Source: Streptosporangiales bacterium (lineage in GTDB: Bacteria > Actinomycetota > Actinomycetes > Streptosporangiales > WHST01). Taken from it: a stretch of 64,000 nucleotides of DNA. Of this stretch, positions 20,937-28,304 are shown piece by piece. The stretch's first letter is position 1. Every line of letters starts with the position of its first letter. The stretch covers positions 3,163-67,162 of the forward strand of contig WHST01000006.1 in NCBI GenBank assembly GCA_009379955.1. Reading direction: 5' to 3'. The translations under genes and the position numbers were made by a program. The notes under the pieces are model-generated. The model was not told the origin of the DNA. It was given only the letters and a program-made list of their open reading frames with translations, and searched no databases.

Positions 20937-21007
20937 GCTTCGAGCTTAGAGCGTCCGTCCCCACATCCGGCATTCGTCAGTCGTCGGCCGAGCGGGCGTC
21001 CTGGAGC

Positions 21008-21316
21008 GGGGCGCGGTGAGCGGCACCCTCACCGCGCCCCGACACGGTCGGGGTGCCCCTCACGTGTCCGGTCCCGAGAGGCGTCACGGCGCGGCAGTGT
21101 GCCGTGACGGATCGTCGTAGTCGCGGACCGGGGTCAGTCGGCAGGTATCTGAGCCGGGGCTTCGCACTCTGGCCCCGTGACACGGTCATCCCACTGACAC
21201 CGACTGACCGTGTCCGCCGGCCGGGGGTTGGTGTGCACGTGATCGCGCCGAGCGCGAGCGTGTCACAAGGGCCGGCACACGAGGGGCCGTGCCAGCGGGG
21301 GCGCACGGCCCCTCGT
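21008..21316 (+). promoter_or_regulatory. hairpin-dense leader upstream of the S8 protease operon (four perfect inverted repeats)
   Basis: Four hairpins: 21008-21040 (13-bp stem, 7-nt loop), 21082-21109 (9-bp stem), 21179-21214 (10-bp stem) and 21279-21316 (14-bp stem). All lie in the 420-bp divergent gap between the ydbS-like gene and the S8 gene. The four stem sequences are unrelated to each other. Confidence 0.45.
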
Positions 21317-21357
21317 ACCCTTCGGGCCGACGCACCAACGAGGACGGAGACCCCGGC

Positions 21358-22539
21358 ATGAACGCCGAGCACGAGGACAGAGCGAGCCGTATCTGCCGCC
21401 GGCACGACGCGGTGGTGCTCGACGACGTCGGCCAGGCCATGGCGCGCAGCCACGAGATCCTCTGCACCCGCCGGCACGCCGACGTCGTCAGCGACCGGCT
21501 GCGCAAGTGGGTCGACGGCAGCGAGCAGGTCAGAGGCGCCGGTATCGTCAGGGTGCGGCTCCGCAGACGTGCCAAGGTCGACCTCCGCGCCGTCACCGCC
21601 GACCTCGAGCCGTACGCACGCGTCGCGCCGAACAGCCTCTACTCCGGAGAGCCCCTCTGGAACGGCGGTCCTGCCAGCCCGCCGACCCAGCCCGCCCATC
21701 GCCCTCGACCGCCCCGGGCACCGGCACCCGGCACGCGCTCCACCGTCACCGCGGTCCTCGACACCGGCATCTCGGCGCATCCGTGGTTCACCGGGCGCTC
21801 CTGGTTCGCCGACTGCGGCCCGCAGCATGCCGAGGAGGTCGACCGCGACCAGGACTTCCTCCTCGACAGCCAGGCCGGGCACGGCACGTTCGTCACCGGC
21901 CTCCTTCTCACGCAGGGGCCGAGCACCGACATCCGCCCGGTGCGGGTCCTCAACAGTGACGGCGTCTGCGACGAGGCCGCTCTCATCCGCGCCCTGATGG
22001 CGTTGCGTCCCTCCGTGACCGGAGCGACGGACGTCGTGAACCTCTCCCTCGGCGCCTACACGCATGACGACCGCCCGTCGCCACTCCTCCTCGACGCGCT
22101 CCACGCGCTCGGTCCTGACACCGTCGTCGTCGCGGCCGCCGGCAATCGCGGCTCGTCCAGACCGTTCTGGCCTGCGGCCCTCAAGTCGGTCGTCGCGGTC
22201 GGCGCACTGGAGTCGGCCGGCGGTGGGCGCGCGCCGTTCAGCAACCACGGATGGTGGGTCGACGCGTGTGCGCCCGGCCACCAGGTGGCGAGCAGCTTCG
22301 TCTGGTTCAACGGTCCCGGCGGCGGCGGAGACGTGACGGACGCCGACCTGTTCCTCGGGTACGCCCAGTGGAGCGGCACCTCGTTCGCCACGGCACAGGT
22401 GTCGGGCGCGGTCGCGAATCTCTGCGCCACGAAGGGCATGGACGCGCCGCAGGCCACCCGTACGCTGCTGGACCCGGCCAAGCACCGGTTGGTGCCGGAT
22501 CTCGGCCTCGCCGTGCTCGAGCGGCGCCGTGCCCGGTAA
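21358..22539 (+). CDS. S8 (subtilisin-like) serine peptidase, no signal peptide
   Basis: ATG 21358 follows GAGGACGGAGA. The catalytic triad contexts are AVLDTGI (Asp), AGHGTFVTG (His) and WSGTSFATAQVSG (Ser). A ~125-aa N-terminal region and a Pro-rich linker precede the catalytic domain. Confidence 0.85.
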   Translation: MNAEHEDRASRICRRHDAVVLDDVGQAMARSHEILCTRRHADVVSDRLRKWVDGSEQVRGAGIVRVRLRRRAKVDLRAVTADLEPYARVAPNSLYSGEPLWNGGPASPPTQPAHRPRPPRAPAPGTRSTVTAVLDTGISAHPWFTGRSWFADCGPQHAEEVDRDQDFLLDSQAGHGTFVTGLLLTQGPSTDIRPVRVLNSDGVCDEAALIRALMALRPSVTGATDVVNLSLGAYTHDDRPSPLLLDALHALGPDTVVVAAAGNRGSSRPFWPAALKSVVAVGALESAGGGRAPFSNHGWWVDACAPGHQVASSFVWFNGPGGGGDVTDADLFLGYAQWSGTSFATAQVSGAVANLCATKGMDAPQATRTLLDPAKHRLVPDLGLAVLERRRAR

Positions 22540-22572
22540 CCTCACGGATGTCGTCGGTGCATCCGTCTGGAG

Positions 22573-23151
22573 GTGGGCGTGGAGACGGTCCGCACGCACA
22601 CCGAGGAGCCGGACAACGCCACCCTCGTCAAGCGCGCCGCGGAGGGCGACGACGAGGCATGGCATCAGATCGTGCACCGGTTCTCCACCCTGGTCTGGGC
22701 TGTCCCCCGCTCGCAGGGTCTCGGCCGGGTCGACGCCGCGGACGTCTACCAGACCACCTGGCTGCGCCTCGTCGAGCATCTCGGCAGCCTTCGCGAGCCG
22801 GCCGCACTCGCCGGCTGGCTCGCGGCGACCGCACGCAACGAGGCGATCCGCGTGTCGAAGCACAGATCTCGCGAGCAGCCCGCCGAGGGTCACGGCGCCG
22901 ACCTTCCCGCGCCCGACCGCGATACCCCCGAGGTCGCACTGCTCCTCGACGAGGAGCGCCGCCGGGTGCTCCGCGCCTTCGCGCAACTCTCCGAACGTTG
23001 TCAACGCGTCCTCCGGGTCGTTGCCGCCGGTCCGGTGTCGAACTACGACGACGTCGCGGCGGCGCTCGACATGCCGGTCGGCAGCCTGGGCCCGACCCGG
23101 GGGCGTTGCCTGAACCATCTGCGCCAGCTGCTGGAGGGGGATGACAGATGA
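22573..23151 (+). CDS. ECF-type RNA polymerase sigma-70 family factor
   Basis: 192-aa ORF; the start may be the second GTG at 22579. Sigma2 region: AWHQIVHRFSTLVWAV...DVYQTTWLRLVEHL. Sigma4 region: LSERCQRVLRVV...DDVAAALDMPVGSLGPTRGRCLNHLR. Confidence 0.85.
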   Translation: MGVETVRTHTEEPDNATLVKRAAEGDDEAWHQIVHRFSTLVWAVPRSQGLGRVDAADVYQTTWLRLVEHLGSLREPAALAGWLAATARNEAIRVSKHRSREQPAEGHGADLPAPDRDTPEVALLLDEERRRVLRAFAQLSERCQRVLRVVAAGPVSNYDDVAAALDMPVGSLGPTRGRCLNHLRQLLEGDDR

Positions 23152-23600
23152 ACGCAGAGGACGCTGTAGTGACGCGGCTGCGCTCCGCCTTCGGGGCCGC
23201 CGATCCCGTTCCGCACCATGCGCTCGACGCAGCCCTGGCGAGCCTGTCGTGGCGCGACCCGGACAGCGCACTGGCCGAGCTCGTCGGCGACTCCCTCACG
23301 GATCCGGCGGGGGTGCGCAACCGATCCGACACCGGCCCCCGACTGCTGACGTTCGAGGGCGACCACCTGGTCGTCGAGGTCGAGGTGTCCGACCTGGGCG
23401 GCGCGCACCGGCTGCTCGGTCAGCTCGTCCCACCCCAGCCCGCCGAGGTCGAGGTGCGCTGGCGCGGCGGGAGCCTGCGTGCCGCCGCCGATCAGCTCGG
23501 GCGGTTCAGGGCGGCGTCGGTCCCACCGGGGCCGATCAGCATCTCCTGCCGGCTGACTGAGCCGTCGCGGTTGGTGTCGACGAGCTGGGTCACGGTGTAG
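23148..23600 (+). CDS. hypothetical 150-aa soluble protein translationally coupled to the ECF sigma factor
   Basis: An ATGA overlap links it to the sigma stop. It has GC3-rich codon usage, no TM helix and no HxxxCxxC motif. Confidence 0.6.
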   Translation: MNAEDAVVTRLRSAFGAADPVPHHALDAALASLSWRDPDSALAELVGDSLTDPAGVRNRSDTGPRLLTFEGDHLVVEVEVSDLGGAHRLLGQLVPPQPAEVEVRWRGGSLRAAADQLGRFRAASVPPGPISISCRLTEPSRLVSTSWVTV

Positions 23601-23648
23601 GAGAACCCCCTGGACCTCGTCCTCCGAGCCGAGCGGGCGCGCCGAACC

Positions 23649-26216
23649 GTGGCCGTGGACCCGCGACGCGCACGCGACGAAGCCTTCGCGGTCCTGCGGT
23701 CGGCTGACGCCAACGCAGAAGCCCGGGCAGTGGCGTTGCGCGCACTCGGTCTCACCCAGAAACTCGCCGGTGACGCCCGACGGGCCGAACGCACGTTGCG
23801 ACGATCTGTCGCAACCGCCGCGGACGCACGACTGAGGCAACGCGCCGCGGAGGCGAGGCTGAGTCTCGTCGTGGTCCTCGCTGATCGTGGCGAGTTCCGC
23901 GCGGCACTGGCCGAGGCAGACGTGGCGGCGCGCGCCCTGCGCGGAGTCGACCTCGGTTACCTGCACACTCAGCGTGCGCTCGTGCTGAGCCGAGCCGGCC
24001 GCTACGACGAGGCCCTGTCGACATTCGCACGAGCATTGACCCATCTGCAACGGTTCGCCGAACCAGAGTGGATCTGCCGCGTGCTGTCCAATCGGGGCGC
24101 CCTGCTCGGCTACACGGGTGGCTACCGCGCGGCGGAACGTGATCTGCGTCGCACGATCGAACTCGCGGACCGGCACGGGCTCGAAGTCTTCTCCGGCCAG
24201 GCGCGACACAACCTCGGTTTCATCTCGTTGCGGACGGGCGACGTTCCCACCGCACTGCGCCTGTTCGCCGAGGCCGAGCCCTTCTTCCCCGCCCAGGGGC
24301 ACAACCAGGCCGCTCGGCTGCTGGACGTCGCGGACGCCTACCTCTCGGTCCGGCTGTTCCGCGACGCCCGCGAGCACCTCGAGCACGCCGTCGACGTCCT
24401 CGCCGAGGGCGGGTTCGCGGTCGACGTCGCCGAGGCGCAGGTGCTGCTCGCGCGCACCCACCTGCTCGACCACGCCGCCGGTGCGGCGGCGCGGACGGCC
24501 TCCGAGGCGGCGGCGGAGTTCCGGCGACAGCGGCGACCCGGGTGGACCGCTCTCGCCGACCACCTCGCCCTGTACGCCAGGGTCGAGGCGGGCGAGAGCG
24601 GTGGGGAGCTGCTCGGGGACCTGCGGTCCTCGGCGCGCCGGCTCGGCAGGCGGGGCTGGGCGCACGCCGCGGTCCACAGTCACGTCCTCGCCGGGGCGAT
24701 GGCGCACGAGCTCGGCGACCGCCGGGTCGCCCGCGTCGAGCTCGACCACGCGAGCCGGGCCCGCCATCGCGGACCGATCGCCGTCCGCGCGCCCGCCTGG
24801 TACGCGACCGCCCTGCGTCGCCTCGTCGACGCCGACGAACGGGGCGCGCTGCGCGCCGCTCGAGCCGGGCTGGGCGTGGTCGATGACTACGCCGCCACCC
24901 TCGGCGCCACCGACCTGCGGGTCAGGGCGAGCGGATGGGGCGAGGACCTCGCGACCCTCGGCGTCAGGCTCACCAAGGAGTCCGGAGACGGATGGCGCTA
25001 CCTCACATGGGTCGAACGCTGGCGGGCCAATGCGCTTCGCCGCCCCCCGGTCCGGCCGCCGCACGATCCGCGGCTCGCGCGCGACCTCGCCCAGCTGCGC
25101 CGGGTGACGGCCGACCTCGCGACCTGCTCGGCGCGCGGCGACGACACCCGCCCGTTGACGGCGGAGCAGGTGCGACTCGAGCGCGCGGTGCGCGACCGTA
25201 GCCGCGTCGTCACCGGCCCGTCCGGACGCTCGACGGGTGGCGCGCTCGACCGTGCCGAGCTCCGCGAACTGCTGGGCGACCGCGCACTCGTGGAGCTCGC
25301 CGACCACGACGGAACGCTCGTGGCCGTCACCTTCGCCGCCGGTCGGTGCCGGTTGCACGAGCTCGGCCCGTTCGGCGCGGCGGCGACCGAGATGGACTCG
25401 TTGCGGTTCTCGCTCCACCGGCTGGCACGACGCCACGGCTCGGCCGCGAGCCTCGCCGCCGCCGAGGCGGGCGTCGCGTACTCCGGACGACAGCTCGACG
25501 CGATGCTCCTCGCCCCCCTGCGCGAGGCGATCGGTGACCGTGAGCTGGTCATCGCGCCGAGCGACGCGTTGCACGCCCTCCCCTGGTCCGCCCTCCCGTC
25601 GTTGCGCGACACGACGGTGAGCGTGGTGCCGTCGGTGACGATGTGGGTCTCGGCCACCCGGCGCCTACGGTCGCCCTCGCGCGGTCGTGGCGTCGTCGTC
25701 GTGGCGGGTCCGGGCCTCGACCATTCGGCCGCCGAGGTGCGCGCGGTCGCCAGGCACCATCGCGGGGTGCGGCGCCTGACCGGACGCCGGGCGACCGTCG
25801 CCGCCACCCTCGACGCCATCGACGGTGCGTCGACCGTTCACATCGCGGCCCACGGACGCTTCCGCTTCGACAACCCGCAGTTCTCCGCGCTCGACCTCGA
25901 TGATGGGCCACTCACCGTCTACGACCTGGAACGGATCAGCCGCGCCCCGCGACGACTGGTGCTGTCCGCATGTGACACCGCACTCTCCGCAGTGCATCCG
26001 GGAGACGAGCTCCAAGGAGTCGCAGCGGCTTTCCTGTCGTTGGGAACCTCGACCCTCGTCGCGAGTGTCACACCCGTCGCCGACAACGAGACGAGGACAC
26101 TCATGGGCAGCTTCCACCGCCGGCTGGCCGCGGGCGCATCGCCGGGACGCGCACTCGCCGAGGCCGAAACGACCACGGGCACGCTGGGATTCGTCTGTTT
26201 CGGGGCGAGCGAATAG
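23649..26216 (+). CDS. TPR-repeat / CHAT-domain (caspase-fold) peptidase
   Basis: 855 aa. The N-terminal ~560 aa are helical TPR-like repeats (e.g. LSNRGALLGYTGGYRAAERDLRRTIEL, ARHNLGFISLRTGDVPTALRLF). The C-terminal CHAT domain has the His/Cys dyad contexts TVHIAAHGRF and RLVLSACDTA. Confidence 0.85.
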   Translation: MAVDPRRARDEAFAVLRSADANAEARAVALRALGLTQKLAGDARRAERTLRRSVATAADARLRQRAAEARLSLVVVLADRGEFRAALAEADVAARALRGVDLGYLHTQRALVLSRAGRYDEALSTFARALTHLQRFAEPEWICRVLSNRGALLGYTGGYRAAERDLRRTIELADRHGLEVFSGQARHNLGFISLRTGDVPTALRLFAEAEPFFPAQGHNQAARLLDVADAYLSVRLFRDAREHLEHAVDVLAEGGFAVDVAEAQVLLARTHLLDHAAGAAARTASEAAAEFRRQRRPGWTALADHLALYARVEAGESGGELLGDLRSSARRLGRRGWAHAAVHSHVLAGAMAHELGDRRVARVELDHASRARHRGPIAVRAPAWYATALRRLVDADERGALRAARAGLGVVDDYAATLGATDLRVRASGWGEDLATLGVRLTKESGDGWRYLTWVERWRANALRRPPVRPPHDPRLARDLAQLRRVTADLATCSARGDDTRPLTAEQVRLERAVRDRSRVVTGPSGRSTGGALDRAELRELLGDRALVELADHDGTLVAVTFAAGRCRLHELGPFGAAATEMDSLRFSLHRLARRHGSAASLAAAEAGVAYSGRQLDAMLLAPLREAIGDRELVIAPSDALHALPWSALPSLRDTTVSVVPSVTMWVSATRRLRSPSRGRGVVVVAGPGLDHSAAEVRAVARHHRGVRRLTGRRATVAATLDAIDGASTVHIAAHGRFRFDNPQFSALDLDDGPLTVYDLERISRAPRRLVLSACDTALSAVHPGDELQGVAAAFLSLGTSTLVASVTPVADNETRTLMGSFHRRLAAGASPGRALAEAETTTGTLGFVCFGASE

Positions 26217-26360
26217 AAGGCGCCGCGATGACGGCGTCCAGGATCGTCCGGCCGGCGGCCCCTGCCGCCCCGCGAGCGGGTAACATCGGCTCGCCGTTAC
26301 CGGTACTTGACCGGAAGCACCTGATCCGAAAGCATGCGGCGTGGCAGCCGAGGGGAGCAC

Positions 26361-26783
26361 ATGGCCACAATCCGCGAATTGGCACGCGGTTCGCGGCGTC
26401 CCTGGGAGGGCTCGCTGCGGTCGGCCTTGTGGCGCACCGGTGTGCGGATCGGTGTGATGGGCGTCGTCGCTGTGGTCCTGGCCAACATCAACCTTCCGTG
26501 GCGACCGGAGACCCTGTGCGCGCTGCGGCAGTTCACCGGCATCCCGTGTCCTCTGTGTGGCACGACGACGGCTGCCGTCCACGCCGGAAACCTGGACATC
26601 GTCGGGGCGTTGGCGGCCAACCCGGTCACGGTCGTCATCATCGCGCTCCTCGCGACGTCACCGCTCACCGGCGTCGGCCGGTGGTGGGAGACGATGTCGA
26701 ACCGGCCGCGCGTACTACTATGCATCGCCTTGTTCGCAGCGGCCGAGATCTGGCAGCTCTTCAGGTACGGGCTCCTCCCGTAA
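26361..26783 (+). CDS. DUF2752-like membrane protein
   Basis: Part of ORF 26334..26783, starting at MATIREL. The hallmark motif GIPCPLCGTT is present, followed by TM helices. Confidence 0.72.
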   Translation: MATIRELARGSRRPWEGSLRSALWRTGVRIGVMGVVAVVLANINLPWRPETLCALRQFTGIPCPLCGTTTAAVHAGNLDIVGALAANPVTVVIIALLATSPLTGVGRWWETMSNRPRVLLCIALFAAAEIWQLFRYGLLP

Positions 26784-26836
26784 CGGCGGGAGTGCATCAC
26801 CGACGGCGTAACACCCAACCAAGGAGGAAGAACTCA

Positions 26837-27112
26837 ATGACCACCCCACCGCCGCAGGACCCCTCTGGCGGCTACGGTGCCCCGCAGCCGGCGAACGAAT
26901 CGTCGAAGACCCTGGGCATCATCGGCGTCGTCTGTGCCGTCATCTGCTGGCCGGCCGGCCTGATCATCGCGATCATCGGCCTGAACAAGGTGAAGCAGAC
27001 CGGTGAGTCGGACAGCCTCTTCAAGGCTGCGCTGATCGTCAGCATCATCGTGGGTGTCCTCGGCATCATCGGCTCCATCGCGAACTTCTCGATGGCCGCC
27101 GGCATGAGCTGA
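26837..27112 (+). CDS. DUF4190-like small membrane protein
   Basis: ATG 26837 lies 9 nt after AAGGAGG. It has a Pro/Gly-rich N-terminus followed by 2 TM helices (LGIIGVVCAVICWPAGLIIAIIGL...). Confidence 0.7.
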   Translation: MTTPPPQDPSGGYGAPQPANESSKTLGIIGVVCAVICWPAGLIIAIIGLNKVKQTGESDSLFKAALIVSIIVGVLGIIGSIANFSMAAGMS

Positions 27113-27121
27113 GACTCCGAG

Positions 27122-27153
27122 GAAGGCGCCGGACGCGGACGTCCGGCGCCTTC
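27122..27153 (+). terminator. hairpin after first DUF4190 gene
   Basis: GAAGGCGCCGGACG-cgga-CGTCCGGCGCCTTC, a perfect 14-bp stem. Confidence 0.55.
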
Positions 27154-27186
27154 GTCATCTCCGCCCCCGACAAAGGACACGAGCGC

Positions 27187-27462
27187 ATGAACAACCCCCA
27201 GCCCCTCGCGGGCCGCGGCCATGGACCGGTGCGGCAGGAGAACAACACGCCGCTGATCCTCGGCATCCTCGGCATCGTCGGGTGGTTCGTCTGCGCCGGC
27301 ATCCCCGGGATCGTGCTGGGCCTCGTCGGCCAGTCGAAGGCCCGCGAGCTCGGTCAGTCGGAGACGCTGCCGAGGATCGCGTGGATCGGTGGGCTCGTCG
27401 CGCTGGCTCTCGTCGTCATCGGCACGATCCTGCTGCAGGGCACGCGCCCGGACGGCTCGTAG
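27187..27462 (+). CDS. DUF4190-like small membrane protein (paralogue)
   Basis: 91-aa ORF reading LILGILGIVGWFVCAGIPGIVLGLVG... Confidence 0.7.
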   Translation: MNNPQPLAGRGHGPVRQENNTPLILGILGIVGWFVCAGIPGIVLGLVGQSKARELGQSETLPRIAWIGGLVALALVVIGTILLQGTRPDGS

Positions 27463-27464
27463 GG

Positions 27465-28304
27465 CTACCCGGCCTGCGGTCCCGTGGCGACCGGCCTCGT
27501 CTCGTCGCTCACCCAGTCCGACCACGAGCCGACGTAGAGTGCCGCGTCGTATCCCGCGAGCCGCAGCGCCAGCACCGCGTGCGCGGCGCTCACACCCGAA
27601 CCGCAGTAGGCTCCGACCGGCTCCGTCGGGGTCGCGCCGAGGCCGGCGAACCGCTCGCGCAGCACCGAGGGCTCGAAGAATCCCCCGTCACCGTGACTGT
27701 TCGCGGCCGTCGGGGCGCTGACCGCCCCTGGGATGTGGCCGGCGACGGGGTCGATCGGCTCTGTCTCGCCGCGGTACCGCTCCGACGCCCGCACGTCGAA
27801 CAGCACGCCGGTGCGCGCGAGCACCGCGGCGCCGTCGGCGTCGAGGAGTGGGAGGTGCCCCGCCCCGGCCGTGAAGTCGCCGGCCTCGGGGGTCGGCGAC
27901 GCCGTCGTCACGGGCAGGCCGGCGGCAAGCCACGCCCCGTATCCGCCGTCGAGCACGCGTACGTCGTCGTGCCCGAAGTACGTGAGGCACCACCAGGCCC
28001 GGGCGGCGGGCTGCCCGTCGCCGGCGTCGTACACCACCACGGCGCGGCCGTGGGACACCCCGAGGCGGCGCATCGCCGTGGTGAACGCGTCGGCGGTCGG
28101 CAGCGGATGGCGACCACCGGCACCAGGGGGACCCGACAGGTCGGTGTCGAGGTCGGCGAAGACCGCGCCCGCGAGGTGCCCTCTGTCGTAGGCCTCGACA
28201 CCGGGCGGGCCGCCGAGCGACCAACGTACGTCGAGGAGAGCAGGCGGGTCATCGCCCGCGAGCCGCTCGGCCAGCTCGGCGACACCGATCAATGGGTCCC
28301 TCAT
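27465..28304 (-). CDS. sulfurtransferase (tandem rhodanese domains)
   Basis: Internal ATG (MRDPLIGVAELAERL...) of ORF 27465..28784, with an ATGA overlap to the upstream gene. The active-site loop reads AYCGSGVSAAH. Confidence 0.85.
   Translation of the reverse strand: MRDPLIGVAELAERLAGDDPPALLDVRWSLGGPPGVEAYDRGHLAGAVFADLDTDLSGPPGAGGRHPLPTADAFTTAMRRLGVSHGRAVVVYDAGDGQPAARAWWCLTYFGHDDVRVLDGGYGAWLAAGLPVTTASPTPEAGDFTAGAGHLPLLDADGAAVLARTGVLFDVRASERYRGETEPIDPVAGHIPGAVSAPTAANSHGDGGFFEPSVLRERFAGLGATPTEPVGAYCGSGVSAAHAVLALRLAGYDAALYVGSWSDWVSDETRPVATGPQAG

Follow-up and report, generated by a model that had tools for sequence, protein, structure and literature searches.

Organization of the Four-Gene Locus

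The locus described here lies in a 64-kb stretch of Streptosporangiales DNA (64,000 nucleotides (nt) of contig WHST01000006.1, called the window below), where open reading frame (ORF) calling places four genes on the + strand between positions 21358 and 26216: a subtilase, a sigma factor of the extracytoplasmic function (ECF) type, a protein of 150 amino acids (aa) and a TPR-CHAT protease. The subtilase gene (21358-22539, 393 aa), predicted to encode a pro-subtilisin, starts with an ATG, a further GTG being present 5' of it at 21289. After 33 nt comes the sigma factor gene (22573-23151, 192 aa), whose end shares a 4-nt ATGA overlap with the gene of the 150-aa protein (23148-23600), a candidate soluble anti-sigma factor, and after another 48 nt the gene of the TPR-CHAT protease follows (23649-26216, 855 aa). 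Neither a signal peptide nor a transmembrane segment was found in the four proteins, the highest Kyte-Doolittle mean over 19 residues being 1.51, and all four are predicted to be cytoplasmic.

This layout had been read from the letters alone in the original prediction, and its descriptive part is borne out. The ORF calls reproduce the strand and the spacing exactly; translation and hydropathy agree on a subtilase with its triad motifs (VLDTGI, GHGTFV and GTSFATA) and no signal peptide; TIGR02937 and PF04542 agree on a minimal sigma factor with sigma2 and sigma4; and PF12770 and TPR_12 agree on TPR repeats followed by a CHAT domain with HIAAHG and LSACDT. The 150-aa protein cannot carry the HxxxCxxC motif, because it has a single cysteine, and its hydropathy is too low for a hydrophobic helix.

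Placement in the ECF54 Group

Regarding the sigma factor, TIGR02937 (ECF, E = 9.6e-17) and Sigma70_r2 (PF04542) span residues 28-186 and describe a protein with sigma2 and sigma4, lacking sigma3. The window is actinobacterial, with proteins identical to those of a Streptosporangiales metagenome-assembled genome; CarboxypepD_reg-like, subtilase and CHAT genes all adjoin the sigma gene, and no canonical anti-sigma family was recognised in any neighbour by Pfam and NCBIfam. By context, taxonomy and domain make-up, the locus thus looks like an ordinary member of group ECF54, from which nothing sets it apart at the level compared.

As described in a review (PMC8999054), ECF54 genes are accompanied by a CarboxypepD_reg-like protein, a CHAT protein and a subtilase, no candidate anti-sigma factor is known, and proteolytic control has already been put forward. 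This description rests on Huang 2015 and Casas-Pastor 2021 (PMC7826278). The latter lists ECF54 among the groups without a canonical regulator and leaves it out of its list of experimentally studied groups; in all, 16 ECF groups, ECF54 among them, have no known regulator. Experimental work on this gene set was not found in the literature searches, and the accessible parts of the ECF54 literature searched report no role for the CarboxypepD_reg protein, no zymogen and no promoter wiring. Consequently, the pairing of proteases and sigma factor, which had been regarded as newly seen, is the context already described for ECF54 (PMC8999054, PMC7826278): the gene set has been catalogued by genome surveys since 2015 and is not a new kind of system. 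What is new here is the fold of the 150-aa protein with its candidate cleavage site, the zymogen nature of the subtilase, and the promoter motif with its wiring.

Conservation of the Gene Set

The census started from an alignment of the sigma family, with which one genome per GTDB species was scanned, and at least 581 species genomes were found to encode a relative of the sigma factor. The family counts 2998 relatives at E <= 1e-10, distributed over four classes (Actinomycetes, Thermoleophilia, Acidimicrobiia and Nitriliruptoria), with Actinomadura, Amycolatopsis, Catenulispora, Dactylosporangium and Pseudonocardia among the cultivable carriers. Eighty loci were taken for neighbourhood analysis, their neighbours being called by profile and phmmer searches of six-frame ORFs; 50 of them, with at least 6 kb on both sides of the sigma gene, are referred to as fully flanked.

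Among the fully flanked loci, the 150-aa gene lies directly 3' of the sigma gene in 43, a CHAT gene is present in 38 and a subtilase gene in 34, and 29 of the 50 possess all four genes. At least ten kinds of gene order occur, the commonest having the CHAT gene reversed ahead of the subtilase, sigma and 150-aa genes, unlike the order in the window. Contexts called with Pfam in metagenomes and genomes agree with these counts. The co-conservation that the original prediction had wished to see confirmed by such a census is therefore found, and on comparative grounds the four genes are a co-conserved functional unit. A chance adjacency, for which nothing more can be adduced than that actinobacterial genomes are generally dense in sigma factors and proteases, is refuted by these loci from different classes with their many orders; a shared promoter motif, presented below, also ties the genes together, and the probability left for coincidence is close to nil.

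Some loci depart from the usual set. On the JGI metagenome contig with P0119, a 509-aa Trypsin_2 protease lies upstream of the sigma gene, in the usual place of the subtilase, and a NAL1_N-like protein is encoded nearby; here the serine protease partner looks to have been swapped for an unrelated one, a sign that any serine protease may serve. In three loci (L034 (8581), L054 (8568) and L063 (8541)), a large AAA_16 STAND-like gene directly follows the sigma gene, behind the promoter motif and in the place of the 150-aa gene; the protein of L063 is fused to an adenylate/guanylate cyclase domain, and in L054 and L063 a homologue of the 150-aa gene is found about 2.5 kb beyond. Two further loci (L044 and L077) have a sigma gene without any of the three usual neighbours.

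The Sigma Factor and the 150-aa Protein

The 150-aa gene was found directly 3' of the sigma gene in 73 loci, overlapping it in 27 (by 4 nt in 17) and following after a gap of 0-30 nt in 25, so that the two genes overlap or stand at most 30 nt apart in 52 of the 73. Overlapping or closely spaced genes are the usual layout of sigma/anti-sigma pairs. Since its gene follows the sigma gene so closely, the 150-aa protein is a plausible candidate for a new soluble anti-sigma factor.

The AlphaFold2 (AF2) model, built from a 36-sequence alignment (pLDDT 84), has an N-terminal domain (aa 3-51) of three helices, at 3-17, 23-34 and 38-51, followed by a linker (aa 52-64) of low confidence, modelled as disordered, and by an eight-strand, CarboxypepD_reg-like beta-sandwich (aa 65-144). 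Conservation centres on a DPxP turn, on helix 3 and on the arginine of the linker (R57/R59), which is invariant in 107 of 107 sequences. Separase and many metacaspase-type enzymes of clan CD cleave after arginine, and because of this preference the invariant residue in the disordered linker is a candidate P1 site. As modelled, the combination of a helical N-domain, a cleavable-looking linker and a beta-sandwich fits an anti-sigma factor gated by a protease.

The protein belongs to a large family (4224 representatives at 50% identity) that has no Pfam family of its own. Its relation to CarboxypepD_reg (PF13620) is weak: sub-threshold matches are present in 28 of 36 members, the best with E = 4.6e-6, and the match of the window protein is faint (E = 0.086). 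The family profile found no relative among PDB sequences, and Foldseek searches of the model against the PDB returned generic beta-sandwiches only (best 8.4e-4), with no Csx30, Csx31 or anti-sigma chain among the top 50 matches. A likeness to Csx30 or Csx31, for which the original prediction had proposed to check this protein and the N-terminal region of the subtilase, is thus not seen, the latter being an ordinary subtilisin propeptide. Apparent fusions of the 150-aa protein with TPR-CHAT in L023 and L037 were rejected as frameshift artefacts of long-read metagenome-assembled genomes.

In the sigma factor itself, two cysteines of sigma4 are conserved among 88 family sequences: Cys143 (ERCQ, 22999-23001) in 95% and Cys179 (GRCL, 23107-23109) in 100%. 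By their conservation, they could form a redox-sensitive or metal-binding pair. The N-terminal extension varies in length in the family alignment and is not conserved, and a conserved pro-sequence is therefore unlikely.

This last point bears on an explanation in which no anti-sigma factor exists, the proteases process or degrade the sigma factor itself, and the 150-aa protein serves as adaptor, as substrate or, like PCi, as protease inhibitor. Reviews do describe ECF54 as lacking an anti-sigma factor and being under proteolytic enzymes (PMC8999054), in a type III-B system PCaspase cuts the sigma factor while PCi inhibits the protease (10.1101/2023.06.23.546230), and CarboxypepD_reg domains are usually found with peptidases. 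The unconserved extension of the sigma factor, though, speaks against it, as does the tight coupling of the 150-aa gene to the sigma gene, which is what sigma/anti-sigma pairs typically show, so that this explanation is held to be unlikely.

The Two Proteases

The TPR-CHAT protein matches PF12770 (E = 4.4e-40) and TPR_12 (E = 3.3e-11), and consists of two parts: about 590 aa that form a TPR/MalT-like superhelix and, after them, the CHAT domain at aa 612-841. Its catalytic dyad, His735 and Cys775, falls in the HIAAHG and LSACDT motifs, and both residues are kept in 50 of 50 orthologues. No relative of the protein was found among PDB sequences.

The subtilase (Peptidase_S8, PF00082, E = 2.7e-25) is composed of a propeptide (aa 1-96), a proline-rich linker (aa 97-128) and an S8 domain with Asp135, His175, Asn263 and Ser342; the triad and the oxyanion asparagine are kept in 47-48 of 48 orthologues. 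In the AF2 model (pLDDT 87, pTM 0.90), the propeptide forms a beta-alpha-beta-beta-alpha-beta unit packed on the S8 domain, and its end carries a PNH[VL]..GEP...GGP motif conserved across lineages. The top fold matches in the PDB, over about 400 columns, are those to unautoprocessed pro-subtilisin E (3whi, with E = 1.9e-16 and 400 aligned columns), ProN-Tk-SP and pro-Tk-subtilisin. Unlike classical secreted subtilisins, the protein has a hydrophilic N-terminus (MNAEHEDRASR...), its highest hydropathy mean being 1.46. Because the fold matches unautoprocessed pro-subtilisins and no hydrophobic segment is present, the model leads to the prediction of an intracellular pro-subtilisin zymogen without a signal peptide. 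Small ORFs called 5' of the subtilase gene in L001 and L004 were rejected, as they are not conserved.

A Shared Promoter Motif and the 5' Leader

Bipartite words were enumerated 5' of those sigma genes that are preceded by non-coding sequence, and the motif GTATCA-N16/17-GCTCT was obtained; of its 74 instances, 66 have a spacer of 16 or 17 nt. GTATC[AC]-N16/17-CTCT occurs 67 times in the 1.2 Mb that the related loci comprise, compared with 1.35 in shuffles, an enrichment of about 50-fold. A motif obtained at first, TGGGC...CGTTCG, was rejected, as it is the stretch 5' of the sigma gene that codes for the Ser motif (W.GTSFA) of the subtilase.

When the loci were scanned with a position weight matrix (PWM), 110 matches were obtained, of which 27 lie 5' of a subtilase gene, 17 of a sigma gene and 14 of a 150-aa gene, the last at 46-110 nt from the start codon; two others precede CHAT by about 500 nt, and the remaining 50 are upstream of further genes in the vicinity. 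In the 25 loci where CHAT is transcribed separately, no motif with a score of at least 13 was found within 400 nt upstream of it. By its position, the motif is probably the target promoter of the cluster's own sigma factor, in which case auto-induction would extend to the subtilase, sigma and 150-aa genes but not to CHAT.

In the window, the predicted promoter of the cluster sigma factor is at 21145-21172 on the + strand (PWM 13.1), with GTATCT (21145-21150), a 16-nt spacer and CTCTGG (21167-21172). It falls within the intergenic region of 420 nt (20937-21357), at a distance of 213 nt upstream of the subtilase ATG, and is the single PWM match of at least 12 bits in the 64 kb, where about 0.6 would be expected per window anywhere. 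In the closest relative, L010, the identical GTATCT variant is present upstream of the subtilase gene, 227 nt away from it. A scan of the four-gene block with sigma-70 promoter and terminator consensus sequences yielded nothing useful.

These positions also bear on the explanation in which the sigma factor, once set free, induces an intracellular protease programme, with the proteases as its outputs; the 150-aa protein would then be an anti-sigma factor of the ordinary sort, whose release needs no proteolysis but a ligand, redox change or partner switching. The subtilase is the commonest gene behind the motif, pairs of sigma and 150-aa genes without adjacent proteases exist, and the two conserved cysteines of sigma4 could sense redox. 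Yet CHAT is without the motif in all 25 separate units while remaining linked to the sigma gene; this linkage survives many rearrangements, and the invariant arginine is located in the disordered linker of the 150-aa protein. A programme of outputs only is accordingly judged rather unlikely.

The motif precedes genes of other kinds as well. In three Catellatospora loci, a phage-tail-sheath gene (of a contractile injection system) beside CHAT has the motif about 400 nt upstream (L043 (-4046), L047 (-4039) and L061 (-4070)); this hints that the regulon there reaches a cell-fate device. It also precedes a second ECF sigma gene in two Gaiellales loci (L030 (-3707) and L046 (-3875)), LuxR/GerE regulators in L051, L057 and L080, and an animal-haem-peroxidase-like gene in L044 and L077.

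In the operon's predicted 5' leader, a conserved hairpin with a G-rich loop (21281-21314, + strand; GAGGGGCCGTGC / CAGCGGGGGC / GCACGGCCCCTC) lies between the predicted promoter and the start of the subtilase; it was found in seven loci (the window, L010, L025, L026, L029, L001 and L067). The stems differ between loci and the loop of ACGGGGGT type is conserved, with compensatory changes in 6 of the 11 pairs of the consensus fold and a conserved TCACAA/CGCACAAC block 5' of the hairpin. The 186-nt leader folds with -96.9 kcal/mol (z = -2.68), and an Rfam search of it gave no credible match. The region 20937-21357 is rich in other strong hairpins, such as those at 21013-21045, 21081-21110 and 21180-21213.

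Chromosomal Setting

Upstream of the four genes, the Pfam scan identifies an SLT transglycosylase, DUF3071/SepH and two bPH_2 (YdbS/T-like) genes; downstream are DUF2752 (26334-26783), rhodanese, Phosphodiest and DUF5998. The remaining window is core chromosome, with dut (dUTPase), DUF3710, ferrochelatase, topoisomerase IV-like subunits and an hrdB-like principal sigma factor. No CRISPR-like tandem array was found in the window, and no cas domain among the approximately 45 ORFs scanned across it. The flanking genes named in the original prediction (sepH, ydbST-like, DUF2752 and rhodanese) and its statement that cas genes and arrays are missing from the 64 kb are thus upheld.

The same surroundings recur elsewhere. 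In Carbonactinospora (L001/L002) and on a metagenome contig (L004), the gene order is that of the window, with rhodanese, Phosphodiest and DUF5998 downstream, and L001/L002 also have DUF3071/SepH upstream. Because this synteny from SepH to rhodanese/Phosphodiest/DUF5998 recurs, the four-gene unit is taken as an old resident of a conserved chromosomal neighbourhood, and it appears to be vertically inherited across four actinobacterial classes; the proposal of an accessory insertion does not hold.

Just 3' of the CHAT gene, at 26217-27500, G+C falls to about 0.68, compared with 0.72-0.75 elsewhere. Two products of this patch are the membrane protein with DUF2752 (26334-26783) and a small protein that is DUF4190-like (27187-27462), and its further ORFs are without a family match.

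The setting also bears on the explanation of the locus as an anti-phage or abortive-infection module, that is, a CRISPR-independent relative of craspase, Borvo or the protease effectors of CBASS. PADLOC gives domain-level matches to a defence subtilase (6.6e-17) and to BovA (PDLC03831, E = 3.3e-8), and in some loci the motif stands before STAND-like AAA_16 genes or the contractile-injection sheath gene. Nevertheless, the BovA match covers aa 735-827 of the CHAT protein only, about 90 residues around the catalytic cysteine against a profile of 720 positions, and the Csx29 model (NF041237) reaches 17.5 bits over about 90 residues, with a cutoff of 300. Together with the housekeeping synteny, the apparent vertical inheritance and the lack of cas genes and arrays in the window, this makes a defence role improbable.

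Comparison with Known Protease-Sigma Systems

The original prediction had taken the type III-E craspase as the sole dissected wiring of a TPR-CHAT protease to an ECF sigma factor; other dissected wirings of a protease to an ECF sigma factor are known, such as the SAVED-CHAT cascade and DdvA/DdvS. Craspase (PMC10028731) resembles the locus in having a cytoplasmic TPR-CHAT protein, an ECF sigma factor and a small protein possibly holding the sigma factor until it is cleaved. However, the window scans found neither Cas7-11 (gRAMP) nor a CRISPR array, and therefore no RNA trigger is expected here; the window CHAT is not a Csx29-type protein, its score being far below the model cutoff; no similarity of the 150-aa protein to Csx30 or Csx31 could be detected; the pro-subtilisin is present as a second protease; and the locus lies on the core chromosome, not in a defence island.

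The type III-B SAVED-CHAT/PCaspase/PCc-sigma/PCi system of Haliangium ochraceum comprises the same four roles, namely a sensor CHAT, a precursor second protease, an ECF sigma factor and a small regulator, and a two-step protease cascade has been demonstrated in it (10.1101/2023.06.23.546230). By analogy of roles, this cascade, and not craspase, is the nearest dissected functional analogue. There, the sensor is SAVED, which binds cA3, the second protease is a C14 caspase, and PCi is a CI-2-like protease inhibitor in a system tied to CRISPR/CBASS; here, the sensor would be TPR/MalT-like and the second protease is an S8 subtilase.

DdvA/DdvS of Myxococcus xanthus (PMC11506125) similarly couples a three-helix anti-sigma domain to TPR-CHAT and an ECF sigma factor. 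In DdvA, one transmembrane polypeptide unites an anti-sigma domain of the zinc-binding CHCC type with a TPR-CHAT part in the periplasm, and RseP completes the release, whereas in the locus the parts are separate, soluble, predicted to be cytoplasmic and without a zinc-binding motif. In the type III-B CalpL/CalpT/CalpS system (10.1101/2023.06.23.546230), an ECF sigma factor is set free when a soluble protease cuts a soluble anti-sigma-like protein, but CalpL is a Lon-SAVED protease triggered by cyclic oligoadenylate, and CHAT and subtilase are lacking. Thus, the locus has none of the traits that define the craspase, SAVED-CHAT, DdvA and CalpL systems (Cas7-11 and array, SAVED, transmembrane or zinc-binding anti-sigma factor, and Lon, respectively), nor a full-length match to BovA of Borvo.

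A Proposed Protease-Gated Sigma Switch

With about even confidence, the locus is read as a standard one of the actinobacterial ECF54 group that works in the cytoplasm as a sigma switch gated by proteases. This reading builds on the domain identities, the zymogen fold, the co-conservation and the promoter motif with its position; the binding of the sigma factor, the cleavage sites, the order in which the proteases act and the signal are what we infer from them. In the resting state, the three-helix N-domain of the 150-aa protein would keep the sigma factor inactive. The TPR-CHAT protein would be the sensor protease, produced independently of the sigma factor, its TPR superhelix detecting a cytoplasmic signal. 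Once activated, CHAT might cut the 150-aa linker at the invariant arginine, the propeptide or linker of the pro-subtilisin, or both. The released sigma factor would then bind GTATCA-N16/17-GCTCT promoters and direct the transcription of the subtilase, sigma and 150-aa genes. Positive feedback would follow, with more sigma factor and with more subtilase to finish the inhibitor or to serve as effector protease, the pro-subtilisin being a sigma-induced second protease, either amplifier or effector. Newly made 150-aa inhibitor would provide negative feedback and reset the switch.

In favour of such a switch, both proteases have conserved catalytic residues, and the linkage is kept through at least ten gene orders. 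The original prediction of a proteolytic switch restrained by the 150-aa protein therefore stands in part: the co-conserved unit, the coupled partner and the fitting fold speak for it, but its novelty does not stand, as proteolysis had already been proposed for ECF54 (PMC8999054).

Several observations weigh against the switch as drawn. The subtilase gene is itself under the motif and could therefore be an output and not a regulator. The CHAT gene of the window has the same strand as the other three, follows them and may be co-transcribed, so that its independence of the sigma factor is only a proposal here. The motif is assigned to this sigma factor by position and enrichment only, and the N-domain of the 150-aa protein matches no known anti-sigma family in Pfam, NCBIfam or PDB profile searches. 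In addition, five fully flanked loci (L011, L012, L013, L024 and L042), of which L011-L013 and L024 are Jiangellales loci, possess the pair of sigma and 150-aa genes but lack a protease within 8 kb of it; in L011 and L042, SepH (DUF3071) is immediately upstream of the pair and thymidine kinase adjoins its other side. Neither protease is thus an obligatory neighbour; in such genomes CHAT and subtilase may be encoded elsewhere or be dispensable.

A more far-reaching form of the switch, in which the 150-aa protein is the founder of a large class of soluble anti-sigma factors, opened at the linker arginine by a two-step cascade of CHAT and pro-subtilisin, is put forward tentatively, its chances being short of even. 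If true, a chromosomal, non-defence "caspase to sigma" switch would be present in many Actinomycetota, with an origin independent of the CRISPR-linked craspase and SAVED-CHAT systems, and its outputs might, in some lineages, include cell-fate devices, contractile injection systems for example.

The window itself is an ordinary example of a catalogued gene set. A candidate anti-sigma factor, a candidate cleavage site, a zymogen, a predicted target promoter and a proposed order of action, however, make the ECF54 group directly testable and, if the switch is confirmed, protease-released sigma factors would no longer be a speciality of CRISPR and CBASS only, but also an ordinary signalling device of actinobacteria.

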